A stretch of DNA of 64,000 bases, filler included, from Globobulimina sp. (GCA_003354225.1; 9 parts of 9 records of this genome joined end to end with filler, not necessarily neighbours in it); one strand, 5' to 3'; positions 7,126 to 58,499 are shown, counted from the first letter of the whole stretch. Made by a program: numbers and translations. The notes: generated by a model not told the origin, from the letters alone.

Positions 7126-7225
7126 NNNNNNNNNNNNNNNNNNNNNNNNNNNNNNNNNNNNNNNNNNNNTTAATTAATTAANNNNNNNNNNNNNNNNNNN
7201 NNNNNNNNNNNNNNNNNNNNNNNNN
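7126..7225. other. Artificial contig linker (N44-TTAATTAATTAA-N44)
   Basis: Identical 100-nt linker recurs at 14344-14443, 21559-21658, 28773-28872, 35983-36082, 43183-43282, 50377-50476 and 57564-57663. Its core places stops in all six frames. Confidence 0.98.
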
Positions 7226-14100: not shown

Positions 14101-14443
14101 TGGGGTGCATCTGAAACTGAATATTTAGGGTTTTAACTGTACCTCAACCAACCAATAAAAAGGAGCTCCAACGGTTCCTTGGTTTCGTACAGTTCCTTGG
14201 GAGCTTCATACCACATTTAGGCGCCCATACCTCCGAAGATTGCAGCGACACATTCGTATTTAACCACCGCCAACGTACAATATTCGCTGAATTAAAATCA
14301 AAAATCCAAAACATTGATTATTTGCAGCACCCAGACCCCAAAANNNNNNNNNNNNNNNNNNNNNNNNNNNNNNNNNNNNNNNNNNNNTTAATTAATTAAN
14401 NNNNNNNNNNNNNNNNNNNNNNNNNNNNNNNNNNNNNNNNNNN

Positions 14444-21558: not shown

Positions 21559-21658
21559 NNNNNNNNNNNNNNNNNNNNNNNNNNNNNNNNNNNNNNNNNN
21601 NNTTAATTAATTAANNNNNNNNNNNNNNNNNNNNNNNNNNNNNNNNNNNNNNNNNNNN

Positions 21659-28772: not shown

Positions 28773-28873
28773 NNNNNNNNNNNNNNNNNNNNNNNNNNNN
28801 NNNNNNNNNNNNNNNNTTAATTAATTAANNNNNNNNNNNNNNNNNNNNNNNNNNNNNNNNNNNNNNNNNNNNT

Positions 28874-31092: not shown

Positions 31093-34000
31093 GTGTTCGC
31101 TCCGACTAATAATGGCTGTGTCAGCCCAATCGTCATAAAACTGCCTAAAATCTCTCCGCACCCACTATCTACCTTTGTTTTTTCACCTGATTTATCCGTA
31201 TTGCTTGCAAATAAAACCATTCCTCACCAACTTAGCTCTCTTTTTTCTATATTATTTTTATTAAATTCTCCTTATTTTTTCTCAAAACACTTACCTTTAT
31301 TCCTCTTTTTTTGTTTTCATTTTGTTATAAATGCGCTCATCGAACTGTACAATGAAACCAATTTTGAGTTTGTCCAAATTGCTGCCATTGATACACTGAG
31401 CGATTCGCCTTATTTTAAATTAAAAACAGCACCAAATCTTGCTATCATTTCTCGTAAAATTGATTATATACAAATATGCTATACACAAATGCGATTTTGC
31501 TCGGTCTTTGAAATAATGCACGATGACGTAAAAATGAGTCACCGCGTTGACCCAAATTTACACACAAATACTTTGCCATTGAAACACAAACAAATCAGTC
31601 ATAATCATATGCGATTTCGCTCCAAACACGATATGATGCAAAATAACCGATATTACATCGGAAATAAAACTAATTACTCCGTGCATAATTACTTCAATCA
31701 TTATAGAAATATCATTAAAACGGAATGCGTGACGGGTTATATGATTAGCACCAAAAAACATAAACATACGCGACGGCTCTATAAATTCATTGAGCGGTAT
31801 CAACATAGACTACGCAAATTATACCGCTATATCAAGATCATAATGGATAAATCCCTGCGTTGGGTGACTTTACGTATGCCACAACATCGATATCATCCCA
31901 TTAAATCCTTCATCATTCGGAAATTCCCATCGTATATTCACATTCGGTTTAAAAAGGTACCGTACAATAAGGAGACTATGGAGCAAACTGTTTACAAACA
32001 GCTCCATGCTTTCAACAAGAGTGCTGCGAAAATACTGACTTTATATGACTTTGTAGTGAAAAACAGTTATGTTGAAAATGATCCAGTTCTACAACAGTCT
32101 GCCACCAACAACAAATATCACATAAAATGGTTTGTCCCCACAGACAAAAAGGTCCATGAAATAAAAAATCACTGGCAATCAACGCATAATAGTCTAAACT
32201 TAAATATTCACTCCCTACACCGAGATAATTGGATAAATAACCAAAAAAACAACGCTATAATTTCACTCAACCAAATTTACAAAAAAGCCGTACACAACTC
32301 CCGCACCAAAAACACACAACTAAGAGAATATAAAAACTATATGGTCAGCAAAGTTATCCAAGAACACTTGAACAATGAGCAACATTCAGATGCAGATCTG
32401 CCTGAAATAATCCGTAAATATCCATTCATGCAGATATATGCCCCAGACATTGAACCAATATCCTCCACGCAAATCAAACTAAAAAACCTAAAAATTGGCT
32501 TTCTAAATATCAACGGCAGTGCCAAAACCAAAATAAACCAAATGCACCCTTATATGCAGCAATTGGTTATGCATCATAAACTAGACATCATCCTTTTGAT
32601 TGACACTCGCAGCGTCCACAGACCTTCATGGAAACTGCCTGGTTATAAGTTATTGGTCCACAAAGCACCAATCACCACCAATAACCCACGGAACGTTGGC
32701 GGTATCCTCATCTATTACAAATATACCATGACAAATAAGATGAAACTAATCCAAAAAACGAGAGGCCACAATACTGCCTGGATCTCGGTACATGTCGCCA
32801 ACCAAAATAAACCTTCATACATTGCCATAAACTATGCCCGAACGTATAAACCAAAATTAAGCCTTCGTAGCCACCAGTTCTACACCTCCCTGACGGAGGA
32901 TATCAATAAATTCAAGAAAGAATGCCACAGTATGTACGTGATCGGGGACTTCAACGCCAGAATGGGACCAATGACCATGGACCATAACACAAACAGCCAC
33001 TATAGATACATGAAAATGATGCTCGATCAAACCAACCTTAAAATTGCCAATCCCCAGTTTGCACCCAAGTTCCTAACCTGCTTAGCCAAAGGAAACAATA
33101 ACAATGGTGGCTCCATAATCGATTATGTAATCACTGACAAATTGAACACCATCAACTCAATGGCTGTGGACACCCACCCTGTCTTTATGGACCATCGGCC
33201 GGTGGTCTTTACCCTAAATAACATCAAATGTGAGACTGCAGCCATAGATAAACACTTAGTTCTACGTGCATATAAGCCCAACGATGAACTAATAAAAATA
33301 CGCGAAAAAATCCTGAATAATGCCACAAAACACCTCCGCAAATTCTCAAAATCCGTGGAACAGTTCACCACGAAAAAAGAGCACAAATATATTTCGCATA
33401 TCACCTCACTCACTGCTGCATACATCCTGCACCTGAGCACCATAAAAGCATTTGGTTTGTCTGATTATAATGCAGCCAACAGGTGGTCCAACATAACACG
33501 AAAACAAGTAACACTAAATATCAAACAGAGAATGCTATTAAACACAGATAACAACACAGATGAAGGGAAACAACTGATACAGCATGCCAATGAAGAATAC
33601 ATACTGAACAAACAAAACATACTGACACAAAATACCATAAAATTCAACAACTTGGATCATTCTGGCAAGCTAAAAGCATTTAAAACGCACAACAAAAACA
33701 AAGAATTCATACTGGATGAGCCATATCTCCATTATAATGGCAGGATAGTGGACAAAAATGTGGCGCTCTCCCAATTCTTCTGCGAAATAAACGGGCCGAT
33801 AAATGACCCCATAAATAACCCCAAAATAGCAGCCATTAATGATTTCAAAGATAAACTGTGTGAACATGGGCCGAATGACCTCACTTTCATTCCAAACAAA
33901 CCAAATGATGATGTACAGGATACCGCGGCACATAGCACGCCTTTGCACAGCAACTCGCCCAAAATAAGCTATGTAATGGAAGATGACAATGACCCCATTC

Positions 34001-35982
34001 CATACTATGACCCGAATTATGTGCCACCAACCCAACCCATAATGGATGAACTTTACCAACTTGAACATGGACGGCACCATGATGTAACTGACAGTGATAA
34101 TGACGTCATTGATGATATGAAGCTGCAAACACCTGGAATGCTTCCGGCACGCTCCCTAATAGATGCTGAGGAGGAGAAGCAAGGCAGTGAGCAAACATTG
34201 AGACCACTAGACACTGCCAAAAAGTCCAAATATAAATCCATTGAACTAAGCATCTCCTATGCGAACCAAAACAGCGCTCCCGGATATGATGGAATAAAGG
34301 CAATCCATCTCAAAACAAATGCCTCCCAAATAAATGAATTAATTTGCATTCTGTTCAACGTTTGGAATAAGACATTCCATATACCATATTACTGGCGGCT
34401 CGGCTCCATAATTCCCATTCTCAAAACAAAAACAGGTAACACACCGAACCAGTATAGACCCATAACTCTCCTGCCAATAATTTTCAAAGCGTACGAACGT
34501 TTGATACTGTGGGAGATGAGCATTGCGCATAAGTTTCGAAATAATCTGCATATCCTACAAGGTGGCAACCGCTCACGCCGAGGTGTTCCGGAGCAAATAG
34601 GTGCCATTAACTTGATCGCGGAGACAGCCAAAATGAGAGAGATACCACTGTATTGCGCCCTACTTGACATACGAAAAGCGTTCGACACTGTATGGCGTAA
34701 AGGACTGCTTTATAAGTTGCACAAACAATTCAATATACCACTTAACATTTGCAAAACCATTAAAGCGATATATGACAATTCCCATTCAGCCATCCGTGAC
34801 CTCCCATTCATTTCCAACAAATTCCTTCTCCATAACGGTGTTCTGCAGGGCTCGGTACTATCACCAGTACTGTATGCTGCATTTCTTAATGACGTTATAA
34901 CCGAACTGCAACAATCAAACTGTGGAGCCGCATCGCCAGATCCTGACAACCCCATTGCCTGTACCATGTATGCCGATGACATCATTTTAACAGCCAATAA
35001 AATATCACACCTAAATGTGCTACTAAAAATCTGCCAGAACCATAGTAATAAATGGAAATATAAATTCAACCATAATAAATGCAAAACGATAATATATAAT
35101 GATAATTCCATAAACAAAAACAACATAAACACATATAACACAGATGATATCCTGCTAATTGAGCACGAATACCATAACGATGCGGATATAAACAATAATA
35201 AGCCTGCCCCAATGATATTGATACAAAAACCGATAAACAAACATATAATGGCAATTAATATACATAACAAAACACAGCGATATCACATAGATGAAATTCC
35301 TAAAAAGCACTTGAAACGCTTTCAGGATCACAGCGAATTCCATGGCGACATCACCAATAAGCCCTATCCAATAATGTGGGAAAACATAAGATATGACAGA
35401 CACTATGCGCCATCAGTAATGCATTTAAAGCTAAGTTTGTACGGAAAGCGGTTACACTGCACAACATTTATTAGATATCTTGGTGCAATGCTGTGCAGCT
35501 ACGATAACACAAATCTGGTGTCGACTGTATCCACGAACGCTGTCTTTCTCAAAAAACTTGATACTAAAGCTCACGTTTTATCTACCTTGGATTTTAATCA
35601 CGTTTTTGTCTCTCTGGCAGACAAGTTCCGGATCCTGAAAACGTTCTATTTAGTTTATACCGAGATATTTGCGCAAATCCTTGACTGTGATCAAATCAAT
35701 CTACAAGCAGCGACAGACAAACAATTACAAACAATACGAACGCAAACGAGGATAAAAACGTTCGTTCCCGAACAATTGTACCTATGGGCCGGTATCCCTA
35801 CACCTTACGAAAGATGGATTTCCCTCAAACTCGCATTCTACTGGAAACTCCTGAAAGGTGATGAGATTTCGTTAATGCATAAATGGGCCAGATTGCCTCA
35901 CATCCACCACCATAAATTATATAAACAGTACATTGCTCTGAAAGATGAATGGCTCCCGAAAGAGCAACAAACAACTAACAAT
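31093..35982 (+). CDS. Retrotransposon ORF2: N-terminal extension + APE endonuclease + reverse transcriptase (3'-truncated)
   Basis: APE: IGFLNING, GGILIY, GDFNA, SIIDYVI, MDHRPV (~32488-33210). RT: APGYDG, YRPITLL, DIRKAFDTV, GVLQGSVLSP, YADD (34969-34980), RYLG. First in-frame ATG at 31489. Confidence 0.92.
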
Positions 35983-36082
35983 NNNNNNNNNNNNNNNNNN
36001 NNNNNNNNNNNNNNNNNNNNNNNNNNTTAATTAATTAANNNNNNNNNNNNNNNNNNNNNNNNNNNNNNNNNNNNNNNNNNNN

Positions 36083-41841: not shown

Positions 41842-42972
41842 ATGGAACATAATTCTAATTTCGGATTGAGAGAATCAGCCGAACCGAGAGTAGTGGAATG
41901 GTTATCAGCAACAGGAATGTTTATTGGCGTTTCCATTCTTATCTTGGTGAATATTTCTTTATCAAGCCAGATTATTCCCTATTTGAAAAAAGCAAATGTT
42001 TCAAAATTGATTATGATGTTCAGTTTAGCCACAACCATATTATTCTTATTTTCAGCTAGTGCTGTTTTGATATGTACAGTGCTGGTATTAATATCTGATG
42101 ATCATAATCATGAATTAGCTGTCACCGAAGCATTCGCAAAAATCAGTGTTTCTCTTTATTTTATAGCTCAAACAGCCATGATATTTTTATTTGTAATCAA
42201 AACGCATTTAACATTCAAAGGTTCAGACGTTGGATATTCTCCATTCATTACAAAGTGTTTATATTGTTCATCTGTATTTTTTCTCGTATTTTTCGTATTT
42301 TTTGATTTAGCTCTTTTGTATGAACAATGGAATTTATTTGTAATGGTTGCTGGAAGTTGGGTCGTTTTATATTTTGGTCTGTCACTATCACTTTGTCTCA
42401 CATTTATTCGTAAAATTCAAATATTATTGGAAGTGTCGCATAAAAGTGGTGCTTCCATTGATGAAGATATATTATTTGTGGTTATCAAGCATGCGTTGTT
42501 GGTGCCAATTGCCATCTGTTCATCGTTCATTTGTTTTACATCAACGTTGGTTGTGAATTGTTTAACGAATCCAGGTGAATGGATGCCGTCTGCCATGTTT
42601 TGGATTGTCATGGATTGTACAATCAGTTCAATCAGTATTTATTTATTATTTGCATGGAATGATAAAAAATATAAGAAATATTGCTCCAAATTGCATGCTG
42701 CGTTTACAAATTTGAATATTTTGAAAATTCAAAGAAATCATTCAGATTTAAAACGGAAAAGCAAACCGAAAAACGAAACAGCATCAAAAACAACAAGTAC
42801 ATATAAGGAAAGTCCAGCAAATACATGTACAGAAAGTCCAGCAATTTGTTCTCGGACTCTCCCATCAATTGAAGCTATTGAACCATCATTGTTAGCAAAC
42901 GATCCGTTACAACAAAGTAAAATCGATTTAGATCAAACTATTACCATTGGTGACAGCAACGAAACCTTATAA
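41842..42972 (+). CDS. Seven-TM GPCR-like membrane protein
   Basis: Seven hydrophobic segments, DCTISSISIYLLF..KKYKKYC helix-8-like end and an S/T-rich tail. Confidence 0.65.
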   Translation: MEHNSNFGLRESAEPRVVEWLSATGMFIGVSILILVNISLSSQIIPYLKKANVSKLIMMFSLATTILFLFSASAVLICTVLVLISDDHNHELAVTEAFAKISVSLYFIAQTAMIFLFVIKTHLTFKGSDVGYSPFITKCLYCSSVFFLVFFVFFDLALLYEQWNLFVMVAGSWVVLYFGLSLSLCLTFIRKIQILLEVSHKSGASIDEDILFVVIKHALLVPIAICSSFICFTSTLVVNCLTNPGEWMPSAMFWIVMDCTISSISIYLLFAWNDKKYKKYCSKLHAAFTNLNILKIQRNHSDLKRKSKPKNETASKTTSTYKESPANTCTESPAICSRTLPSIEAIEPSLLANDPLQQSKIDLDQTITIGDSNETL

Positions 42973-43282
42973 ATTATAATTAAATTCAAAGTATATTTGT
43001 GTAAACAATATTATTGATTATATTTTCATTATAATTTGCTAATTAAAAAGATGCAAGATATTGAGATAAGAAGTAATAATTTAATTTAATATTTAATTGG
43101 GTCAGTTACAGCAATATAACAAACGGGAAAAGTATATATATTAATATGAAATATTAATATCACAAAAAAGGGAAATAAGATTNNNNNNNNNNNNNNNNNN
43201 NNNNNNNNNNNNNNNNNNNNNNNNNNTTAATTAATTAANNNNNNNNNNNNNNNNNNNNNNNNNNNNNNNNNNNNNNNNNNNN

Positions 43283-46200
43283 ATACAGAAAACAAAGAAG
43301 AAAAAAAGCAAGAACATGAACATTATGAAATGGAAGATATAATAAAAAACGTTTCTATATGTTTAGGTTTTTTATTACATGAAAATAGTCCATTATGGAA
43401 AGAAAAAAACCGACACCATTCAACCATTGAATTGCTGGGTAAAGACTTACAAAAAAAGAAAAAATCAGAATTAAAATTCTCAGATCGATGTAGTATATTC
43501 CAATCACGCTATGTATTGGGTGTAGAGAGAGAGGAAGAAAACGCATCGCCAACAACAGTTAAACCCGCGACGTCAAGGAAAGTATTTTTAAGCGCTATAC
43601 AAAAGGGCGGAAAAGAACGATTGTTTGATAAAATTATCAGCACTTTGGATGAAAACGAATATAAACCCAAATGGGACGAATTTATTAAATATTGGGATTC
43701 ATGGCAGCAAAATAGAAACATTAAAATGGAGGAATTTAATGATATACAACGGTTTGAATGGGATAAATATCAGAATGATATCAATAACGTCTCAGTTAAA
43801 TATATATAATAATATAATATTATAATAATTTATATAAATGTAACAAATATATATAGAAAACTATTGATACATTACTTGAGTCATTAAAGAAATACGACAG
43901 AAATGAGACTGAGAGAGAAACAAAGAAAGATGAGGAGAGACTGGAGGCATTAAACAATGTTTCGAAAAGGGAGGATATGCGATTGTGGTTAAAACAATAT
44001 AAGAAACACTCCGATTCAGAGCGTGATATCGAATTTACATCGACAATAATTGATAGTTCATCCATTTTATATAAGTCCATCACCGGCTTTGATTTAGACG
44101 ACGATATCGATTTAAAATACGACATATCTGTTAATAATTTACCATTTAAGAAATGGAAATGGCAACATGTTGTATTTTGGATAGAAAAGTTGGCGGATCA
44201 TCAATTTTTTGCCTCTGTATTTCGGGAATGGGAAATTAACGGCGCTGAGTTGTTGCAAATGAACGAGAAACAAATTATATGGCTCACGCAATGTTGTTAT
44301 AGCGCAGAAACAGTAAATAAAGAAATTGTGAAAGATTTAATCATTCAGGTCAATAAAACTGTGATTTCCACCATAATTACGTACCAATATGGATTATATT
44401 ACAAACAAATTAAAAAACACCCGGATATATCTGAATTATTGGACTATTTAAATCCGAAAAAAGAACAAGGACCAAAAGCATTATGGTATATAAAAAAAAT
44501 ATGCATTCACTGATTCACATACACCATATAAATATATTAATATACAGGAAATTGGACGCATTTTATTTCAGTAAAATAGATAATATGTTGGCAATGTTAG
44601 TCGCTCCAAAAGGATGTCGTCACTTATTTCGAGAATGGAATCCAAAATTTATATTTGATGACGAAGATACACATACAAGTGATCTCACCAGGCTCGGTAC
44701 CCGGGGAAAGACACAGAAAACCCTCAAAGACCGTACTCAATTGGCTCAACCGCAACAGCTACGTAGTCATAGTGATCATGAGGACATTGTTGCTGATCAT
44801 GAGGACAAAAAACCGCACGTTTTACCGACATCAGTCCGATATATTGATGTGATCGATAAACTTGTAAATATCCCATGTTGTGAACATAGTGCGTGCGGCA
44901 CATATATTCGCAATTTTGATCGCGTGTATTTGAAAGTCATTTGTTTATTTATATGCGTATTAAGTTTTGGTTGTTTGTTTGCTTGGTTGTGGATGTCTGG
45001 CCGTTCTAGAATGGAGGTTGGTATTTCCATGGAATGGGCGGCCCAATCAATTGTTCAACGGGCTACACAATCTATGGAATACGCATTTTTTATCCCCCAA
45101 ATGGTATTAAATATAGCCGTTGGTGGATTGTCGAGTGGTGATATTACTGTTAATCCAAACGATTATATCAATAACACACAATTCGATGAGTTTTTTGTGC
45201 AGTATAAACATTATAAAGCCTCTGAAAATACAATTTATTCATTATGCATGTACGAATCACAAAATAATTCCATGATTTGTTCGCGTAGTAACGGCACTGA
45301 TCTATGGATATATACATATGGTAACCAGTGTGATCGTGGATGGCTATATGACCCTGTCACGAAACAACGTGATATAAATAATATTGTGTGGGACTCATGC
45401 AATGGAGATGATTCGTACGATCCTACCACAAGAGCTTGGTATGCAAAAGCACAGCAACTTGGGGTTGATGATATAGGTTGGACAGAGCCGTATATTTTTG
45501 CTGTCACCAAGCATCTGGGCATAACTTTAGTTCGTAAGGTGGATTATAATGGAATTGAGGTCATATTTTTGGCAGAATTCACAACTTATGAATTAGATAT
45601 AATATTTGATGCGATTGGGAGTGTAACTACGGCTGTTACCTATTTAGCAACCTCTGCTGGATCAGTAATAGCATCGAGTACGCACGAATACGATATCATA
45701 AATTGTACGGATTGTTCCGTCGGTAATAATAAGATATTAACAGATTCAATTAAATTATTACGAGCGAAGGCTAATAGTGAAGGTCAAGGTATATCGGATG
45801 CATATATTAATGGCTCAATGTTGACAGAAACAGATTTTACATTAACATTACATTCATTTAAAACTACCTATTTAAGTGGAAATAATTTTGAATATGCTAC
45901 CATTGCGGTGGTGTATGACGATGAACATTTATTCGCCATACAAACTGCAGAATCAGTCACATTAACGTTATATTTGGTGGCATTGCTGTTGGCTTTATCC
46001 GTTTTATGCGGCATGGCTGCGTATTTACAATATCTGCAACATCGAATGAAATATGATTATGACCCGACAGGCATACAAATTCGACAAGAATCTGTACGGT
46101 TAGATGTTATCGCTGATATGACCGATGCTGATGATGCCAGTCCTGAAGCACAGAGAGATTTGGCCAGAGAGAAAGAGAAAGCTTATCTAAGCACAAAATA

Positions 46201-49200
46201 TGACTCCTATCTAATATCAAGCGACTGTGTGTTCGACCACCGTACGATTACAATTTGCTCGTTTTGGTACATGTTGGTGGTATTTTTACTCACATTTTTT
46301 ATTTGGCAAAAGAATGTCGATTCCGTTTTAGATGATGTTGAAGAAACCTTCCTTGTTCAGGAATTTATGATTATTGAAGATAAGGTGGTAAACATTGTCG
46401 CCGTGGCTGAATCCATTGCAGATATTGTGTTGGACAGATTCGATCGCGGCGATATGGCTTTAAAAGCTGTGCAAAATATACCAACCGAATTAGATGTATT
46501 TTTTGCGAATATAATGCAGAATTTTAAATTGCCAAACGGCGACTTCTATGCTCATATGGTGTATATTGGTACGCCGGATGGGAAGCTTATTGGTTGTCGC
46601 AGAGAAACAGAGGATGCCAACATAGCAAAATATGGAAATGCGTTGCGAATTACTGTTCGAGATAATTCTACAGATTGGAAATATTTGCATTTCGCTGCTA
46701 ATTCAGATACGTTACAAAGAGAAAGTGTGTCCTCTCCAATAACGAACACAGATTCATACGATCCGCGCTGCCGACCTTGGTACAGCTCCACTGTGAGTTA
46801 TATGGTTGATGATGACATATGGAACGCGTTTGGTGGAGATAACAATTTTATTAACTTTTATTCCGATGACAGCAATTTGTTATCTCCAGCACGAGAGTCG
46901 CAAAATTGCATCGATGCATTGATATATTATCAGGATATATGGAATGTAACACAAGAAGAGTTAGATGCTATTATCTATAATAATTTAACGAGTGATATTT
47001 CGTCAGTGTCATTAAAACCAAATGAAATTTATGCAGACAAAGTGGAAGCAAACGGTATAAGTTATGATATGGTATGGTCGCAATACTTGTTTGCCTCTGG
47101 CCAATTAGGTCTGACTGCGACCAAACCAATTATTGAGAAATCCACAGGCGAATTACTAGCGGTCATGGCAATTGATTTCACTTTAGAAGGTTTGTCAGAT
47201 TATTTGAATACGACAAACAATGTGATTGAAGGTGAAGACTCATGGTTTTCGTGGATTTTTGCAGGCGATGAAGAGAGTGGAGGCAAACATGAAATGATCG
47301 CATCTTCGGATCATCAGATTACGATCCCACTCGATGAGATTGACGGATGTCTGTTAGCGGCTGGTACATCCAGTTCGGATGTGATACAATACTCAGCCAT
47401 AGAGCATCCGAATAAAACCATTCAGATCATATCGAAGGAAATTGTACAATTTTATTTGGCTGACGATGGTTTACCAATTAATGCCACCACAGCCCCTCAA
47501 CATATTAAGTTACCCATAGATTTGCCAGAAGCACTAAGTGGGCGATTTTTAACTTACCCATATTCGAATGAATCGAGGCAAGTGTCGTTAAATTGGATTC
47601 TAACGAAATCAATATCTATTCGTAACTTTGAAACAAAAGAAAACGATGACGTTAAAATAGTATCATTTACTTTGTTTTGTCTGATATTTTCAGTTTATGT
47701 GATTCAAAGCAATTTAGCCATAAGCACAGTGAAAGCAGACGATCATAAAAAATCTGCAATTGACGAACAGCAAGAGATAATATCACAAGATGCATCGTCC
47801 GTAAATATAAATAAAAATACAATAAATGTAAATGTAAAAGAAGAACAAAAACGGGCAAACGATAAATATGCAGAATTGCTCACTGAAATGTGTAACATTG
47901 TGGAAGGATCGTCAGCAGAAATATGGCATTTATTTTTAGAGACTTTTAAAGCCAAAATTGGGGTATTTCCCATGTCGACATCAATTGTGCGGGATTTTAT
48001 GGCCAAAGAATCCAATAAACATATTGCAACCGACGAAGATGAGAATAATATGTTGATTTTATGTGCTCTGCAAGTCGAAAACAAATGGTTTTTATTTAAA
48101 ACATTAAAATTTATAAAATCGTACAGTTGGAACACATTTGTTACGATTCTAATATTTTTCCATTTATCTTTCAGTATTTATTTACCAGAAACACCTTCGA
48201 AATTAAGAGAGTTAGGTTTCCAGCAAACAGGGGCACAACTTTCAATTGGCTTGACTTTATTGGCAATTCTTATAGAAATTATTGATGTTATTCTGCACGG
48301 AGTATCTCGGTACATCGTATTCGGTAAAGTGAAACGTGAGTCCTTGTTATCTTTAATTAAATTGAAACATGGATTTGAGCATCATTATGTTGGACAAATT
48401 AAAAATAAATCAGCATTATGGCTGACATTTTTTGGCACAGCACATTGGCGATTATTTCTAATTCATATTGCTTTGGTTACACTCATTTTTGTGAATATAA
48501 TAACAATGATTTCAATTAAAACAGCTATATTTGAATATTATTTACCTTTGGTACCAATTCTGTTAGTTGTTCGATCCGAAGATGTGCGTACATTTTCCTA
48601 TCAATTGTTCTATGCGGTCTATTTAGCCAAAGACGTATTGTTCAGTTATTTCATATTAGTATTAATTGTAGCAATATTTGCCTTGTCAACATTTAGTGAA
48701 ATATTAAATCCAAATCAATCGACAGATACATATAATTCCAGTGTACGAGCGTTAATAACTACATTCGTGTTTGTGTCAACCGGCGAGAATTACAATGACG
48801 TGGTATACTCAGCAATTGGTAATGATAATGAGTCTGAGCTATGGTTTGTGGACATGGCAGGCACGTTGGCAATGATTAACTTATTATTTTTTGTGAGTGT
48901 CAGTATTATTGGTCTATATTTTTTCATTCCTGTTATGATTCACAAATTCGAATTAGCTTTTTCTCAGTCAAAGGCTGCCATATCTGACAAAAATCTGAAA
49001 ACAAAAATAAATAGCATTATTGCCGCGTTTATCATGCTCGACATGAATGACGATGGCGATATATCTATTGACGAATTTCAACATTTAATTCATTCGTCAA
49101 TTATATCACGTGATGTATTATTTGATGCATTTGCCAATGCGTCGGGCGACGAGGATAATAAAATATCATTATATGAATTTACGTCAACATTAACAAATAG

Positions 49201-49819
49201 AAATGCATTTGCCGCCGCAATCAATGGTATCAAGTGTCAAGTCAATAAAATCCAATCTATGTTAGAATGTAATTGGTACAGAAGACGCAAAAATAGATAT
49301 TATGTGTTGGTGTATGTATTGATACCATCTGTATGTGTTGCATTATTGCGTGGTTTATCTGGACTGGATGTCACATTTCTAAATGGTTTGGTTCACTTGT
49401 TTTTTGTTTTAAACTTCTTAGATATAAATCTGCGATGGTATGCATACGGTAGAAAGAGATATTTATCACTTATAAAATATGAGAACCCGCCATTTATACA
49501 ACAAGCAATTTTCAATTGGCGAGTAAATCGCGATATGACTGATTACATTGATGATAATATAATAGATTTAAGCAATAAGTCGAGAAAATGGTGCAATTAT
49601 TATTTACGTCCAGTAAAACCTCTGTCATCGTGGGATAAAATGACGCTTGGCACCATGCACAGATTTGAATTATATGTTATATGGAGCGGTACGTTGGGAT
49701 TTATAGCAACGTTTATATTCCCATCATCACTCAAAGGTTATTATTATTTGTTTATACAATGTTATTTATTTCGATTATTTACTCTCATTGACACTTGGAC
49801 CTTGTTTGAAATTTTGTGA
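43283..49819 (+). CDS. SAM + 2x (TM-dCache_1-TM) + TPC-like channel domain + EF-hands + partial second channel domain (5'-truncated, 3 visible exons)
   Basis: Introns 43795-43856 and 44486-44547 join the ORFs in frame. SAM-like WKWQHVVFWIEKL..FREWEINGAELL; YDPTTRAWY (45416-45442) and YDPRCRPWY (46757-46783); pore ALITTFVFVSTGENYNDVVY (~48750-48808); EF loop DMNDDGDISIDE (49040-49075). Confidence 0.85.
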
Positions 49820-50476
49820 AATAGGAATGGTTAATCGATAAATAATAAAATTGGAATATCTGCTGTAATATTGATTTTCATGTCAAATCGCTTTCACCAC
49901 CAATCTTAGAATATTTTTTTGTATCTTTGTATATATTTTTTTTTTGTGAGGGACCAAACCTGTGAGATTTAAAATCTTACTCAATCTTACTCAATTTCAC
50001 AGATTTTCTTTAACAAAATAACCTATATTTTGCTTCAGATTTTGCTTTTGCTTCAACTTTTGAGAGCTTCGACAAGAGATATTGCTTTAATAACCTCTTA
50101 GCGACGTTAATCTTGCTATTCCATTGACGTTTGTTCCCACTGACTGCCATTTGTTGACTTTTAGGCTCTCTTGGCCTTAAATTATACTTGACATTAGTGA
50201 GTAAGATTGAGTAAGAATTCAAATTTAAATTTACGTACTGAGTACATTTAACAATGGCAAACAAAAAAAAAAAGGTACGTAGTAATAGCCTATGATATTA
50301 TTCGATCATGTACCAAATATAAAGTTGATAACGCAAGGTTATGGTATAGCTGAAATTATTGAGAAATTAACCAATCNNNNNNNNNNNNNNNNNNNNNNNN
50401 NNNNNNNNNNNNNNNNNNNNTTAATTAATTAANNNNNNNNNNNNNNNNNNNNNNNNNNNNNNNNNNNNNNNNNNNN

Positions 50477-53400
50477 TGCGTAGAATTTATAAATATTGGT
50501 TCAATGAATCGAAAATTATTATAATTATCATAATATAACTTACAAATATAATTGGATGAATTATAGAAATTAAAACCTTGAATGTACATTAAAGACACAT
50601 ATTGCGATGGTGCGGCAAATATAATCGAAGGAATGGTTTGAATTAAAGTAATTTCTGGAACAATATCTATGAATAATTGAGTATTATAATATTGTTGATC
50701 ATTAAATCCAACTTGAATTAAATGTGTTGTTCCTGAGGCTAAATCTGTTGAAAAACCCAGATTATTCAATAAAAATTCAAACACAATTAAATCTTCCCAT
50801 ATTTCAATTGGAGACATAATAATATTATCTCCAATTTTGATTTTGGTTAAATAATCAATAAATCTTTCTCCCTCCAAATGTAATGTAACTGCACTCAAAT
50901 TATAATATGTCGGCTCAATATCTTGAATTGTATTGGGTAAAATCGTTGAAAATATTGGTGTTGGATAATACCAAAATGGAATATACACTCCGCTATAAAA
51001 TGCATGTCCTGTCGTAGTTTCGCGGATCCATAATTGGGCGACTTCATCATTAATATATTCATTACCGGTTAAGCTAACATACAAAGGCGGTGATAAACAT
51101 TGTACACTCACACTGCTGTTATATGCATGCAATGTACTTTCATAAATACCTTTACTTGTATTAAATACACATTTATCTGTATCTTCAAATCCTGTTCCAT
51201 TCACAGTAATTACTGTATTGCCTTCTAATGGTCCCATACTTGGATGAATACTATTAATATTTGGTACTGCATCATTATGAAATGACAGCGTAAACTCTGA
51301 TTCGTTGAATGTGGTATGCCCAGCAATCCAAATGGTTATTTTTAATGGAGAAATAAAGGACACATTGTCAGCAGGATATATGAGTGGAATATGAACATGA
51401 AGCAATGTAGAATTTACATATTCTAGTTCTAATATCACCTCAGAACGTGAGCTCACTGATTGTGCAACATCTGATGTTTTATGAATAACAAACCAATTTT
51501 GAGAAAATAACGACATGCAATCAAAGTTAGCACCAATCACAGCAATTGTCACATTTTGTTGTGGATAAATTGTATCCGGTGATATGGAGGTAATGGATGG
51601 CGTGGATATGTATTTAAACTGTAAATTGGTATCATAAAAAATAACACCTCCATCAAATGAAATTTCAATGGTAATATTTCTATATAATTCATTGGTTTGT
51701 GCTGGTATTAGACATCGAATAACTCCATATTTAAAACCAGCATTGCCATCAGATTCTAATAATACTTGTCCGGTTTCTTTCAGTCTGCATAGATAATCAC
51801 CCCAATCTTCAAATATACCATCTAATTCTATCCATGTGGACATTGTATCAAATCCAAATGATGGATTTATTGATGTTACCACAATGTCTGAATAATATCT
51901 GTATTCAAATGCAGCACCGATGCAATAGCCAGAATATAAGTGATCGTTAAATGTGTTTGAACTTAAACATAAAGTCACACTTTTTACCGAATCAGTGGTT
52001 AAAATTAATGGGTTATACCGAGGAATAGTACATGAAATATTTGTATTTGGTATCACTGAAATATCATTAATTACACATAATGTATCGGCTAAGTCAATAT
52101 AAATTCCAGTAAAATATACAATATTATTACCTGACACAGGACCCATCAGATTGGAGGTAAAATTCAGTATCTTTGGAGGGAATTTGTATTTGAATACATC
52201 ATCAATGAATAAAATTCGATTTGAATCATCAATAAACGACAGCTGTAATGTAAAATTCATTGCATAATCAGTGTCATTATAGTCTGGTACGAGACATGTT
52301 AAATGTGATGAATTTATCACATGATAAACTGCAGAGATATATTGCACCGAATTATTATTCGCATTTGAAAACCAACATTTTGAAGAAACATCAACTCCGC
52401 GATCATACGGGAAATTACTACCAATCACAGTGATATTATATCGATAACCAATAATTCCAAAATTTGGTACAATGGATGTTATCATTACTGATGGTGTTAC
52501 ATCAAATGAGTATGATGGAGAATATTGTTGATTGTTTAATGAAATTGAAATTTGGATTGTCATTGATTCAAAAGTTGCAGGAAGCGTTATTGTTACATGT
52601 GATGTATCGATGTACGTAATTGTTAAAACATTTGCATCCATTCCATTATATCGTGCAGATAACAACGATGAATTAACGAAATGAGTCCCAGTCACAGTGA
52701 TCACAGTGCCTGGAGGACCAAATGGTGGCCATATCGAGGAAATGTTGACAATGTCATGATAATAAAAATAAAATGGTATTTCACTGTGATAGCCCAAACT
52801 ATCTAATATCTCAACGGAAGATATTCTTGCTTCAACCAAAGCATTTGTTATACATATCACTACATTTGCATTGATATAGGTTGTTGTCACTGGATATCCA
52901 TCAATATTACAGACAGAAGCATTTGTAAAATATGACCCATTGACTATTATCTTTGTATTGCCAGTGCGTGGGCCGAGTGTCGGAAATATACTTGAAATCC
53001 TAGGAAATTGGTTTGTAAATAATAAGATATGATTCATTTCAATCGAATTGTCATTATAATAAATACCATTTACTGTGACGCGAAGCAATAATATTGATAT
53101 GGCAGACATAGACCAATTTGATGGTGTATTACAAGTTAACGTTGCCGAATCAATATAGGTGGCAAATGTTGTTGTTTCAATCAATGTGTTTGTTGTATAA
53201 TTTGTGTAATAACATGCCAATGTCGAGATATTTGCAAAACCAGAACCAGAAACTGTGAGTAATGCATCAGTGTATAACGGGAGAACTGCAACTGGTGATA
53301 TTTCATAAATTTTTAGTTCGGGCAAATATATTAAATCTATTAAATATTCATTGTCATTCCAGTTAGAACCATCATCCAATGACACAGATATTTGCAGTGT

Positions 53401-56400
53401 ATCCGGTGTGTGAGCTATGGGAATAAATACAATCTCTGTGTTGGATATCATTGTGACATTGGATATTATTGTATAATCACTGGGATCCATAGCTGATGTT
53501 AATTTTATTAATAATGAAGGATATGTACCAAAACAACAGCCACGTAATGTCACGGTATCTCCATTATCCGCATGGATATATGTCGGAAATACGGAATATA
53601 AGCGAGGTAATGTATAAAAATGAAATCGAAATCGTTCATGCTGGCTATATTCATTACAATTTGGCGATACTTCAACAGCTACCACTTTATTCCAATATTT
53701 TGGTGTTGTACATTGAATATACGAATCATTCAAAACAGTATAAACTGTATCAGTTCCGGATGAAGCGTCAAACCGACAACAACCTCCAATTTGATTTAAA
53801 TTCTGCCCATAAATTGTAATTATTGTACCACCTTCAACTGGGCCATGAATAGGATACATTCTTTCAATCAACGGATAGGGCACATATATAAACTTTGAAT
53901 CACACAAATAAAAATCCCAACTATTGACTGTGATTTCAACTAATGATTCACCATAAAATTCATCAGAAAATGGAACAACACATTGAATTGCTGATGTATT
54001 TATTACTGTTGCCTCAACCCAGGAAAACCCAAAAAATCTGCAATAAATTGTATTGTTAAATGTTGTAATAAAATTCGAACCAAATACAGTAATTTTAGTG
54101 CCACCAAAATAATAACCAGAGGTTGGTTCAATGGCAGAACAACTGGGTTGGGCATAATATGTGAATGATAAACTTCTAATCGCTTCCCAATCTTCCCCAT
54201 TATTTGAAATTGATAAATCAACAGCAACAGAACTATTGAATGCAGCCTTAATTGATGTAACTGTGTGATTCCATATTGATGGCATATATATAATTAATGT
54301 TTCATTATCTGCAAATATTGCATGTATGTCCATTATATAATGAATTCTCACAGTTAAAAATGCCGTTGGTATAAAATTTGTGCCCTTGATTATAACTCTG
54401 GTATTTCCTAATTCTGCGCCATTTGCTGGATATAATTCTGTCATTGTTACATCATCCACATAATAGAAATAGTGTTGAAATGCACGATAATTTTGCCCAT
54501 TATTAGAACATTCAATGTGTATATTGTTGCTACTGCTGTTATTTGATAATAATAATGATGACCAAGTTGGAGTGGTAAATGTTAATAAATATCGCGAAAC
54601 AAATATAGGTTCAAATATATGCGTTGAAATATTGTTAATAAAACACGAAATTGAATCTTGTATAAAATTATCACCATACATACTGATTTTAGTACCACCT
54701 GCCTTTGGACCAAAGTTTGGATAAATATCATTTATAATCAGTTCGTCATAATATTCAAATGTTACTAAACCATCAAAATGCATAACAATGTCCCGATAAT
54801 GAATGTAAACATAAACTGTTCGTTTTGTATCTGAGAGTGGCGAAATACATTGAATTGTTGTATCTGTTTTGGAAATTACGGAAACACGCCGAAAATCCCC
54901 AATTTTACAAAATATATAATCTATATTCAACCCATTAAAGTTGCTGCCATAAATTGTTATCAATGTGCCACCTTGTTTTGGTCCAATTGTTGGTATAAGT
55001 TTTGTAAATGTTGGATTAGGTAAAATTGTATAATTCAATGAGTTTGAAACAGGATCGGTATAATCCACAGTGTTGAAGGATATTTGGAGACGGAATACTG
55101 TATTAATATTCCATGGCGAATACGTAAATGATGAGGAAATAGAATTTATATTCATGGTTGAAATCGGTGGAGGAGGACAATACAACAAATCAGCTCTATA
55201 CACAGTACCAAGCAATGGATCAAATTGATAATTATCAGTTGCTGCAATATTTGCAAATGTCACATTTAATGCGGTCCATAAACAATGAGTATCAACGGAA
55301 GGAACAAAATCTGTGCCATGAACACGGATGGATTCGTTGCTTGATTCGATGCCATAATCGGGTAATAAATAGGAGAGATAAGGAGTATGATGATAGAAAT
55401 ACACCATACCAAAGTCTGTATAATCATATCCGTTGTGTGTCACTTCGAATCGTACCATTCCAATCGATGTTACTTGCGGCGATTCAAATATTATCTCATT
55501 ATCTGTGATGGAAAAAGGAGTAACAACCAAAGATGCATTGATTTTCACTTTGGTAGTGGTTAAATTGAGGAAATTTTCACCGTCAATATGCATTAACGAA
55601 CCACCCAATGTCGGGACATATGTCGGAAATATATTATATAACAAAATATTTTCTGTGTAACTAAATTTAATTTGTTCACCAAATATATAGTCCAATCCAT
55701 TTAATGCGATATCCAAATAAACAAAAGGCATTAATTCCAAAGCTTTGCTCAGAATCGAGGGTGTTTTGCAAATAATAATGGAATCATTTATCATTTGGTC
55801 CACGTACGTTTCTTTAATGATGTTCCCGTACTGATCCACAAACTTGTACATCAATGGGACAACATCCATTATATTATTTGCATCATACATTGCAGAAAAA
55901 TTAAAATGTCCATTATTTGCAATTATGTTTAATTCTGTATTACCAGATAATGGACCGTGTGTCGGATAAAATAATAATATATCAATATCTGGATGATAGG
56001 TAAAATTTAAATACGAAGCAGAGTAATCCCAACCATTCCTTGTGACTGTAATACTGACAATTTCTGATGTATTCCATGAAGGAGTATAACATTCAATCAA
56101 TGTAGTTGTGATGTACAGTGCTGAAACAATAACTGAGTTGCCGTTTAATACTGATGTAAATTTACATTTTAAATAATCATAGACAGCGGCAAAACCTGTA
56201 CCTGATATAAATAATTTTGTATTTCCTTGAAGTGGACCAAATGTTGTCGGCATTAGTAATGTTAATGCAATGTCGTCATGATACCACCATTGTTTTATGG
56301 AGTGAGAAAATTCTGCACCACCATCCACAGATATGTCCAATGCCATTGATCTATTGTTGTTTGGTAATTTTGTGGGTGATATACATGTTAACGATACATT

Positions 56401-57563
56401 ATTTTCAGTCAATGTTGCGGTTACAATTTGCGTGCCAAATTTACATTGATGTTGTCCAGGATAAAAACTATTGTTTACAATGTTAATTCCATGCACTGTC
56501 ACTAATGTACCACCTAAAGCAGGCCCAAATGGAGGAACAATGTTTGTTACTAAAGGCAAGGTGTAATACACAAATTCAATGCCAACATCAAACCAATCCA
56601 TAGCATTGGATGAAATGTATAACGTTACAGTTTGAGCATAAAATACAGGCGGATTAATACAATAAATCTCGCTCGAACTAATTACTGTTGCTATGGATAA
56701 CATATCGTCAAATTTACAATACATTGTATTGATTGACACAGTGGATGATGCATTCAGATTGGAACCAATAATTGATATATTTTGTCCGCCGCGAGAAGAT
56801 GTTGTAGGTGGCATTAACACGGATACATTGAATATTAAATGATAATTAAATTTAATTCTTGATGTGGTTGAAAAATGTGCGCCTGAATCAGAGGATACTT
56901 CCACATAAACATATCCATAATCACTTGGTGTCGATGTAACATTTGGTGTGATACATTGCAGTGTTTCATTATTAATCCATTGTGCAAAATAGGGTGACTC
57001 TGTGGAGCCAAATTTGCATTTATACGCATTATATCTGAAGAAGAAATTTGATCCATAAATGATTACTGTTGTTCCACCTGCAATGGACCCAATATTTGGT
57101 TCAACAAAAGTTAAATTAATTCTCTCTCTCCAAGAAAATGTGACATGATCATCCGTATAATGATTGCCATTGATTGCAACATCAATTTTAGCATCGCCGC
57201 AATTATGCACACCATCCGTAGGACAACTAACAGCTGTTTCAGATACATATATACCAGAAACGATTTCTTCCGGGTTATGAAATTTACATTTTATCTGTGA
57301 AGTGTTTTTGAAATTCGTGCCATGAACAATAATGTTTTCAGAGAATCCGATTTCCATATAACTGGGTTCAAAATATTCAATATGAGGCGGTGGGTAAAAA
57401 TTCCAATTTAATGACAAATTATTTGAGTAATAATCCAACATATTCGGTGTAAATTGAAATTTTACATTATGATCTTCGATACGCGATGTCCCTGAAGATA
57501 TACATTCAATTAATGAGGAATTAATAAATGTGGCGGCTCTTTGAGGTCTATCACCAAATAAAC
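50477..57563 (-). CDS. Giant IPT/TIG-repeat cell-surface protein (both ends missing)
   Basis: More than 2300 stop-free codons of ~95-100-aa repeats with consensus I.P..GP..GGT.ITI.G.NF....C.F.....S...I.C.TP......V.VS.NG..Y.....F.Y; many NxS/T sequons. Confidence 0.92.
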
Positions 57564-58499
57564 NNNNNNNNNNNNNNNNNNNNNNNNNNNNNNNNNNNNN
57601 NNNNNNNTTAATTAATTAANNNNNNNNNNNNNNNNNNNNNNNNNNNNNNNNNNNNNNNNNNNNACCACCAGTATCATACTAAGCGCTACTTCTAGAACTA
57701 CTCGAATAAATATAGTATTTAAGGGGTGCCACTAACACTATTACCGTTTGCAGAACAGGGACAGCAAATCAGACGGGTCACCCATGGTACATAACTTTTT
57801 AATTGTAACTTCTGAGAGGATATTTTCGCCAAAACAAATACGATGGCAGTGCATTTATTGCCCAATTCGAAGTCAGTATCCAACCAAATATGGGCAATAA
57901 AGGTTTTGGTTTGCAAATAATGAGAAATGTATGCAGTCAATTTGGTCTCAAATCAGGTCCGTATAGCAAAGCAAAAAGCAATTCAATAATTGGGGAACAA
58001 AATTGCATAAGCAATCGAAACAAAGCAGTAAAAATGGATATGTGTCAACAGTAGCTCAATGTATAAAACAGCAGAATAATGGTGTGATATCATCTGTGAA
58101 TAAACAGAATGACAGCTCTAAAAATGGTAATGATATACCGATATCGAATGCAAAATTGTGGTATTGGCTTTGTGACGGAGGCGGATTGAAATGGCTTTTT
58201 TTTAATTATAATGTATCATATAGTGCATTTGGGTGCCAGATTGTTTCTAAGTCAAAATACGATAGGAAAAACTTTTTAAAGAATTGCAGTTAGTAAATAA
58301 CACGTATTAAAATATATAATAATGATATACTACACGAAATTGAGAAGCAATCTTCGAAGAGAGCGATGTTGGGGATGACCGATTATCCAGCTACTTATTC
58401 ATAATTGACGGTGTGCTTATATTTAGAGTCAATTACAAACATACACAACACTACTTCCCAAAACCACTGCAACCCTCTTAATTCCACCACAAATCTTCG

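Follow-up and report, generated by a model that had tools for sequence, protein, structure and literature searches.

Within the cation-channel superfamily with six transmembrane helices (6TM), ligand gating is known from intracellular ligands, among them cyclic nucleotides, lipids and Ca2+. A locus in a 64,000-nucleotide (nt) stretch of DNA from Globobulimina sp. (GCA_003354225.1), the whole of which we call the window, raises the question of whether extracellular sensors of small molecules and a pore of this superfamily can be parts of one polypeptide. The initial annotation of this locus had proposed a protein in which two extracellular dCache amino-acid sensors, each flanked by transmembrane (TM) helices, are followed by a module resembling a two-pore channel (TPC). 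Our best explanation overall, to which we give a probability of about 0.55, is that tandem Cache sensors are joined to a two-repeat channel of the Cav/TPC type that is gated by an amino acid or amine and is permeable to Ca2+. If so, the contig at this locus contains most of the gene for a protist membrane protein of ~2,100-2,300 residues with ~16 TM helices.

The gene across the sensor-channel junction

The open reading frame (ORF) at 44483-49819 is present as a single uninterrupted frame of 1,778 residues. Evidence from outside the window comes from homologues (P numbers below) and from contigs of the public sequencing runs X1, X2, X6 and X7, the kind of the last three not being on record. 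Run X2 belongs to a different study and is near-identical in sequence to the window, X6 and X7 are ~94% identical to it, and the low-depth run X1 is probably the source of the window contig. When four homologues were compared with the window by tblastn, three collinear coding blocks in three frames were found, and these blocks and the outside contigs give the following gene model.

43283..50376, unstranded: gene-bearing contig of 7,094 nt between two N44-linker-N44 joints; the rest of the window is unlinked to it
43330..43794, plus strand: exon 1 (cytosolic N-terminal region), from tblastn of P0001, P0005 and P0006, with the joint 43794 to 43857 present in outside contigs
43795..43856, plus strand: intron 1, 62 nt, GT..AG, skipped in contigs of runs X2 and X6
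43857..44485, plus strand: exon 2, from tblastn and outside contigs
44486..44547, plus strand: intron 2, 62 nt, GT..AG, skipped in contigs of X2, X6 and X7 and kept in record 3 of X1
44548..49791, plus strand: exon 3, its extent backed by family homology and outside contigs
47705..48127, plus strand: conserved cytosolic linker from the sensor module to the channel, from the consensus of the family alignment, bridged by X2 record 12 and by P0013

Sensor and channel are continuous in one transcript. Record 12 of run X2 (2,015 nt, 15 differences) spans 46547-48561 and thus runs from Cache2 through TM4 and the linker into channel repeat I, and the metagenome protein P0013 likewise spans Cache2 to repeat I. 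Together with the uninterrupted frame, these crossings uphold the proposal that sensor and pore are a single polypeptide, and no chimera was seen where outside contigs bridge the junction. The same layout was found in about a dozen long homologues from protists and metagenomes. In the homologue search, 10 proteins of 1,028-2,883 residues reached E≤0.001 among 6,872 candidates, all of them from EukProt, ENA or JGI, and in domain scans of homologues every one with a detected C-terminal output domain carried the channel, no other output domain being found. That the fusion is a chimera of two adjacent genes, created by assembly or gene calling, is hardly credible: the assembly is fragmented and of low depth, which would favour such an error, but the frame is uninterrupted, the covering contigs come from three studies with record 12 of X2 crossing the junction, and the layout recurs in P0013 and in long homologues with Ion_trans.

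The 5' part of the gene is larger than had been supposed. Position 44548, given earlier as the start of the ORF, is the acceptor of intron 2, and because this intron is skipped in outside contigs it is the true start of exon 3. The two upstream exons (43330-43794 and 43857-44485) are part of the sensor-channel gene and were absent from the initial annotation, in which 43283, merely the first base of the contig, had been taken as the boundary of the feature. Intron 2 is retained in the low-depth run X1, where record 3 covers 44281-44620, and the intron-less contigs of X2, X6 and X7 are most simply explained as transcript-derived. The start codon at 43330 is provisional, since the frame of exon 1 is open back to the first bases of the contig and in an X2 contig the sequence ahead of 43295 is longer by 255 loose letters; translation may in truth begin upstream of the contig, with the 5' end missing. 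Contigs of X6 and X7 lack 33 and 36 nt, respectively, at 43556-43596 in exon 1, with no GT..AG ends, and have insertions of 12 nt at 43310 and of 3 nt at 47003; such length differences are in-frame variation between relatives and not splicing. A SAM-like stretch at ~44148-44276 in exon 2 scores below the Pfam threshold. Two homologues, P0033 (49.6 bits) and P0036, have a DEP domain upstream of Cache1 in place of the SAM-like stretch, and therefore the cytosolic N-terminal module is variable within the family.

Two Cache domains and a two-repeat channel

The sensor half comprises the features below. Residue numbers are those of the 1,778-residue ORF, and coordinates were converted manually from the hydropathy, motif and channel alignments.

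44936..44992, plus strand: TM1, from hydropathy (residues 152-170), a long helix in the model
44993..45961, plus strand: Cache1, a complete dCache (double PDC) ectodomain, from fold, homology and motif
45416-45577, plus strand: Cache1 motif residues Y312, R317, W319, Y320, Y337 and E365, from alignment
45962..46018, plus strand: TM2, from hydropathy (residues 494-512) and the model
46247..46303, plus strand: TM3, from hydropathy (residues 589-607) and the model
46304..47647, plus strand: Cache2, homologous to the dCache domain Cache1 and containing ~95 inserted helical residues, from profile comparison, model and motif
46757-47176, plus strand: Cache2 motif residues Y759, R764, W766, Y767, Y868 and D898, from alignment
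47648..47704, plus strand: TM4, from hydropathy (residues 1056-1074) and the model

The four hydropathy helices bear out the proposed order of TM helix, extracellular domain and TM helix, twice over, and fold, profile and transcript evidence supports the presence of tandem dCache sensors that carry the amino-acid motif. An AlphaFold2 model of the sensor region has a predicted local distance difference test score (pLDDT) of 83.9 and a predicted template modelling score (pTM) of 0.81. With this model Foldseek returned 99 PDB matches at E≤0.001, and those listed were bacterial sensor domains, including the amino-acid binders Tlp3, CtaA, Mlp24, Mlp37 and PctA/B. Residues 28-344 of the model, corresponding to Cache1, were aligned by VIA-align with whole dCache ligand-binding domains (Z 15.6-19.5, root-mean-square deviation ~3 Å, 195-289 residues). 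Cache1 and Cache2 are related to each other according to hhalign (probability 97.5%, E 5e-12, 175 columns), and the Cache2 insert of ~95 residues, for which helical structure is predicted, separates the R-x-W-Y helix from the tyrosine that comes next in the motif.

Sequence searches lead to the same family. When the 936-residue sensor region of the window was searched against 1.84 billion proteins with HMMER/phmmer, 102 representatives were found at E≤0.001. The strong matches were family members, many of them fragments, and the weak tail consisted of dCache_1 histidine kinases, diguanylate cyclases and receptors, of which all 10 that were scanned were above the Pfam cut-off, so that true dCache_1 proteins are reached by the window sequence at a library-wide E of 1e-5 to 1e-3. 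Nine further proteins were scanned and three of them were above the dCache_1 cut-off, two matching the Cache2 half. Pfam applied directly to the window protein gave no dCache_1 match, the best score being that of MCP-like_PDC_1 (21.6 bits, cut-off 27). Homologues scored 33.6, 17.5 and 16.9 bits for dCache_1, for which the cut-off is 45, and P0011 passed the cut-off of 27 for MCP-like_PDC_1 with 32.2 bits. A single-sequence search of the PDB with the Cache part of the window yielded weak dCache matches only (E 0.02-0.8), and in the ESM Atlas the neighbours listed were all bacterial Cache-type clusters, with a score of 0.79 that is under the lead level of 0.9. Taken segment by segment, the window protein remained below threshold for dCache_1, Ion_trans, SAM and EF-hand, whereas Ion_trans passed in homologues; with the Foldseek and VIA results, structural or profile matches were thus obtained for both Cache and Ion_trans. 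One relative, P0076, has 1,437 residues and four dCache_1 repeats.

The ligand signature had been given as YxxxxRxWY..Y..D, that of the dCache_1 domains of bacterial chemoreceptors and of alpha2delta/CACHD1. The Y-x4-R-x-W-Y part is indeed present in both, but the full motif (Y-x4-R-x-W-Y...Y...D, in the distal module) of dCache_1AA, the subclass that binds amino acids (PMC8915833), is kept at 6/6 positions in Cache2 and at 5/6 in Cache1, where Glu replaces the final Asp. In a family alignment of 34 rows, Cache1 has the Arg in 26/27, the Trp in 27/27, and Glu in 23 and Asp in 3 of 27; the corresponding numbers for Cache2 are 22/24 for Arg, 25/25 for Trp and 23/24 for Asp. The Glu may tune Cache1 to a different amine-bearing ligand.

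The channel half follows the linker.

48128..48961, plus strand: channel repeat I (S1-S6), from hydropathy, model, Foldseek and alignment
48749-48820, plus strand: pore loop of repeat I with the filter Glu, from alignment
49016..49195, plus strand: EF-hand pair in the inter-repeat linker, the first loop canonical and the second weaker
49304..49791, plus strand: channel repeat II, S1-S4 only, S5-pore-S6 being absent from the contig

Hydropathy places six TM helices at residues 1216-1486, where six helices and a pore loop had been proposed and the pore-loop string was found, and three to four more at residues 1608-1770. The EF-hand pair had also been placed correctly, although its Pfam matches on the window protein (~21 bits) are below threshold. 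Among the homologues, Ion_trans was above the Pfam threshold in 7 of the 15 scanned (3/4, 3/4 and 1/7), mostly as two stretches (P0004, P0005, P0009, P0015, P0018 and P0025), and also in the distant P0089. Long members without an Ion_trans match are cut short or score low (P0001, 17.6 bits; P0011, none).

Structure and sequence place this channel differently. The model of the channel part (584 residues) has a pLDDT of 75.2, and all 12 of its Foldseek matches in the PDB at E≤0.001 were two-pore channels (10 AtTPC1 entries, human TPC2 and mouse TPC1), while Cav, Nav and NALCN started at E 7e-3. In the VIA alignments, whose rows were all tied, TPCs were the sole chains extending across both halves of the model. 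A single-sequence PDB search with the channel part of the window gave weak EF-hand matches only (E 0.25 or worse). The family profile, by contrast, matched Cav1.2 first (E 1.7e-34), and the best 60 of 256 PDB matches were Cav1.2/1.1/1.3, Cav3, Cav2, Nav, NALCN and bacterial Nav, none of these 60 being a TPC. All four aligned stretches came from the repeat-II pore, and the filter Glu of the family sits on the repeat-II filter Glu of Cav. The layout is therefore TPC-like and the pore sequence Cav-like, so that the TPC reading of the initial annotation stands for the layout and the best structural matches but not for the pore. The filter Glu is present in 9/12 rows for repeat I and in 7/9 rows for repeat II, and the S4 helices carry two basic residues in repeat I and one to three in repeat II.

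Proposed gating, alternatives and known systems

We infer the ligand, the coupling, the selectivity, the dimer and the membrane location from these features, and likewise gating by amino acids and modulation by Ca2+. The protein would consist of a cytosolic N-terminal region, possibly SAM-like, two TM-dCache_1-TM modules, a linker and a 2 x 6TM channel of the voltage-gated cation channel superfamily, in the order of plant TPC1 with an EF-hand pair between the repeats. TPCs are dimers, and two chains of the Globobulimina protein would form one pore that is permeable to Ca2+ and in which four acidic residues of the filter make a ring, the dimer thereby presenting four Cache modules above a four-fold acidic filter. 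Bacterial dCache sensors signal as dimers by displacing the TM helix that follows the sensor. In a comparable manner, an amino acid or related amine would bind the membrane-distal pockets of the four Cache modules, and binding would shift TM2/TM4 and the linker so as to open the gate. The high pTM of the two-module sensor model would fit a packing of the Cache modules within one chain like that of a sensor dimer. Ca2+ feedback has been reported for the EF-hands of AtTPC1, and the EF-hands of this family may serve the same purpose. Voltage would be at most a modifier because the S4 helices carry few charges, and ligand gating is favoured over voltage gating since this scarcity of charge is accompanied by conservation of the ligand-contact residues. 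In its strongest form the proposal is of a new class of eukaryotic ionotropic chemoreceptors, in which a tandem-duplicated amino-acid sensor of bacterial type, one chain mimicking a sensor dimer, directly gates a Ca2+-selective two-repeat pore of the Cav/TPC lineage; this we put forward tentatively, as possible rather than probable.

Several observations weigh against the proposed gated channel. The Pfam models for dCache_1 and Ion_trans stay below threshold on the window protein. The fold of Cache2 rests on its homology to Cache1 and on secondary structure, as Cache1 occupied the list of structural matches, and the ligand may not be a standard amino acid because the Asp of the published motif is replaced by Glu in Cache1. 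At 0.45, the pTM of the channel model is low; VIA aligned repeat I over the whole NavAb, NavMs and NaVEh chains with Z 12-13.4, and arrangement alone can give helical proteins Z values near 13. The filter Glu is missing from some family members, and in some the EF loops are degenerate. The window copy is without S5-pore-S6, and the gene could be disrupted in that organism. Finally, gating of the pore is not a known role of the Cache domains in alpha2delta.

In one alternative the Cache ectodomains are a built-in module akin to alpha2delta, serving folding, trafficking or the binding of matrix or partners, with opening controlled, as in two-pore channels, by voltage, by Ca2+ through the EF-hands, or by lipids. 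It would suit the finding that two-pore channels account for 12/12 Foldseek matches at E≤0.001 and that the EF-hand pair is placed as in AtTPC1, and the large Cache2 insert lies at the site of the alpha2delta VWA domain as described in PMC8915833. Family-wide retention of the ligand-contacting motif in both modules is hard to explain without a bound small molecule, however, and the few S4 charges and the bacterial signalling topology TM-dCache-TM also argue against this alternative, which we regard as unlikely though serious. A second alternative concerns where the channel resides. TPCs are organellar channels gated by NAADP, PI(3,5)P2 or voltage plus Ca2+, and as they are the closest structural relatives, an endolysosomal or vacuolar location might be envisaged in which the Cache modules face the lumen and report lumenal amino acids, linking nutrient status to Ca2+ release. 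The pore sequence is nearer to the Cav channels of the plasma membrane, and we judge an organellar location to be rather improbable.

The family resembles several known systems. Like it, plant TPC1 (AtTPC1; PDB 5e1j, 5dqq and 7fhn) is a single chain with two 6TM repeats, joined by a cytosolic linker that holds an EF-hand pair. The PDB matches of the channel part at Foldseek E≤0.001 are TPCs without exception, and TPCs align across the whole model. Identity to TPCs, however, is only 13-18%, the family has a filter Glu in both repeats, and it bears an N-terminal extension of ~1,200 residues that contains the two Cache ectodomains and four TM helices. No mention of such an extension was found in the TPC papers returned by searches of open-access PMC and bioRxiv.

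The pairing of Cav alpha1 with alpha2delta offers a closer parallel in composition. The S5-P-S6 of family repeat II matches Cav1.2 best, with the filter Glu aligned, and both systems combine a Cav-type pore with dCache_1 domains bearing the amino-acid motif, as set out for alpha2delta in PMC8915833. Unlike Cav alpha1, the family has two repeats and not four, and in full-length homologues nothing but a coiled tail follows repeat II. Unlike alpha2delta, it has sensor and pore in one polypeptide, TM helices lie on either side of each Cache module, and the modules stand in tandem and are not nested as in alpha2delta and CACHD1. No Pfam match to VWA was found in the window protein or in four homologues, and Cache1 is uninterrupted. 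According to PMC8915833, all the eukaryotic dCache_1 proteins found there carry a VWA insertion, which in alpha2delta follows the same N-terminal half of the motif as the Cache2 insert does here. Having the bacterial TM-dCache-TM form and no detected VWA domain, the modules are not alpha2delta-like; and because VWA is present in all the eukaryotic dCache_1 proteins found in PMC8915833 and is undetectable in this family, the family may represent a separate acquisition.

Bacterial dCache_1 sensors (PctA/B/C, Tlp3, CtaA, Mlp24/37, TlpQ and McpU) have in common with the family the fold, the TM-sensor-TM topology and the Y-x4-R-x-W-Y...Y...D/E motif. They differ in output, which in the family is an ion channel and not a kinase-control, cyclase or HAMP module, and the family has two sensors in tandem in one chain, the ~95-residue helical insert in Cache2, a eukaryotic host and introns of the spliceosomal type. 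A precedent for the fusion of a Cache sensor to an ion channel exists in prokaryotes, where Tasneem et al. 2005 (PMC549065) describe Cys-loop channels fused to MCP-N/Cache domains and propose a role in chemotaxis. Those channels are prokaryotic and have a pentameric Cys-loop pore, in contrast to the tetrameric-type 6TM pore considered here.

A second environmental clade, P0089 and P0108-P0110, combines dCache_1 and Ion_trans in one protein of ~2,500 residues. P0089 and its relatives, known from metagenome contigs only, have an EGF-like stretch, a dCache_1 domain and a strong two-repeat Ion_trans match. They differ from the present family in the EGF-like stretch and in having one detected Cache region, and are distant from it (E 7e-5 over ~100 residues). 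The automatic JGI name of the P0089-related clade already lists dCache_1 and Ion_trans. The earlier statement that no described protein with this architecture was known agrees with the literature searched, since no description of dCache_1 or dCache together with Ion_trans or a cation channel was found in open-access PMC and bioRxiv, but not with automatic naming. The parts are known, and their combination appears to be undescribed.

If the proposal is correct, the wiring of an extracellular sensor of small molecules to a 6TM pore would introduce a principle of gating that is new to the superfamily, and single-celled eukaryotes would possess a path from an amino-acid signal to Ca2+ entry within one protein, of use in chemotaxis, feeding and nutrient sensing. 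In the strongest form of the proposal, the protein would also be a natural single-chain counterpart of the alpha2delta and alpha1 pair, and coupling of Cache domains to a pore would be older in the superfamily, and more direct, than the role of the animal auxiliary subunit suggests. This bears on the original role of the Cache domains in alpha2delta, the target of gabapentinoids. The protein is in addition a compact candidate for practical use, either as a chemogenetic actuator of Ca2+ or as a biosensor of amino acids.

The 3' end of the gene and the other contigs

The channel is incomplete in the window. After the last conserved residues of the window protein, homologues go on to S5, a pore loop and S6 and end in a charged tail. 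P0114 (68% identity), in which the pore loop has the conserved Gly-Glu-Gly-Trp filter, has ~215 further residues beyond the break. By tblastn, similarity to the C-termini of 4/7 homologues ends at 49795, and the C-termini of all seven searched against the whole window matched nothing beyond 49882. Record 14 of run X2 matches 48992-49791 and then continues with 676 letters that are unlike the window, and the depth of X1, ~5 across the gene, reaches 54-106 in the final three bins. What follows the break is a repeat.

49792..50376, unstranded: high-copy repeat at the end of the contig, from X1 depth and X2 record 14, supplying the stop codon at 49817-49819

Since homology, the X2 contig and X1 depth all break at ~49791, the stop at 49817 is part of the repeat and not of the gene, and the window copy lacks its 3' end because the contig enters the repeat. 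The four more TM helices and a stop with which the protein had been said to end are thus an artefact or the result of an insertion: the family proceeds to S5-pore-S6 where the contig becomes repeat. Within the repeat tail is an inverted repeat of 27 nt (49967-49993 / 50198-50224). The flanks of other copies of the tail differ, with loose ends at 49846 and 50352, and each of these flanks is the reverse complement of the other, which suggests that a small mobile element lies inside a larger one. On the minus strand of the tail, 50010-50297 is a stop-to-stop open frame of 95 codons, containing an 84-residue ORF with a TTG start at 50010-50264. A third intron beyond the stop was considered and rejected: a stretch in the same frame faintly resembles S5 and a pore, but it contains at least three stops and has no GT..AG solution.

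The gene might instead be truly interrupted at ~49791 by insertion of a repeat or transposon, as a pseudogene or truncated allele, rather than left by an assembler entering a repeat. The window contig itself joins gene to repeat, X1 depth climbs from ~5 to 54-106 at the repeat, and no X1 loose end lies at 49791/2 among those listed; beyond those listed, however, are 13 loose ends and 235 contig pieces. Moreover, the ORF is intact across 5.3 kb up to the break, and the near-identical X2 contig runs on through 676 letters of other sequence, about the length needed for the missing ~215 codons. We regard a real interruption as improbable, and an assembly that ends in a repeat as the more probable explanation of the break.

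The remainder of the window has no bearing on the position of the gene. The 64-kb window is a chain of size-sorted contigs of ~7.1 kb each, with lengths from 7,125 down to 7,087 nt, joined by N44, a 12-base linker with stops in all frames, and N44; neighbours in the window are, for this reason, not neighbours in the genome.

7126-7225, 14344-14443, 21559-21658, 28773-28872, 35983-36082, 43183-43282, 50377-50476 and 57564-57663: contig linkers

An Rfam search of the window gave no match, hence no ribosomal RNA. The sequence is that of an AT-rich protist. The contig that precedes the gene-bearing one contains, at 41842-42972, an ORF of 376 residues with several hydrophobic helices and no Pfam match. 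The contig that follows it, 50477-57563, is spanned on the minus strand by an ORF of >2,300 residues, open at both ends, with at least 14 IPT/TIG repeats (408 bits), and so carries a fragment of a giant surface protein. In the contig at 28873-35982, which has 40% G+C, the ORF at 31093-36030 (1,645 residues) has endonuclease/exonuclease/phosphatase and reverse transcriptase domains and is a non-LTR (long terminal repeat) retrotransposon resembling a long interspersed nuclear element (LINE).

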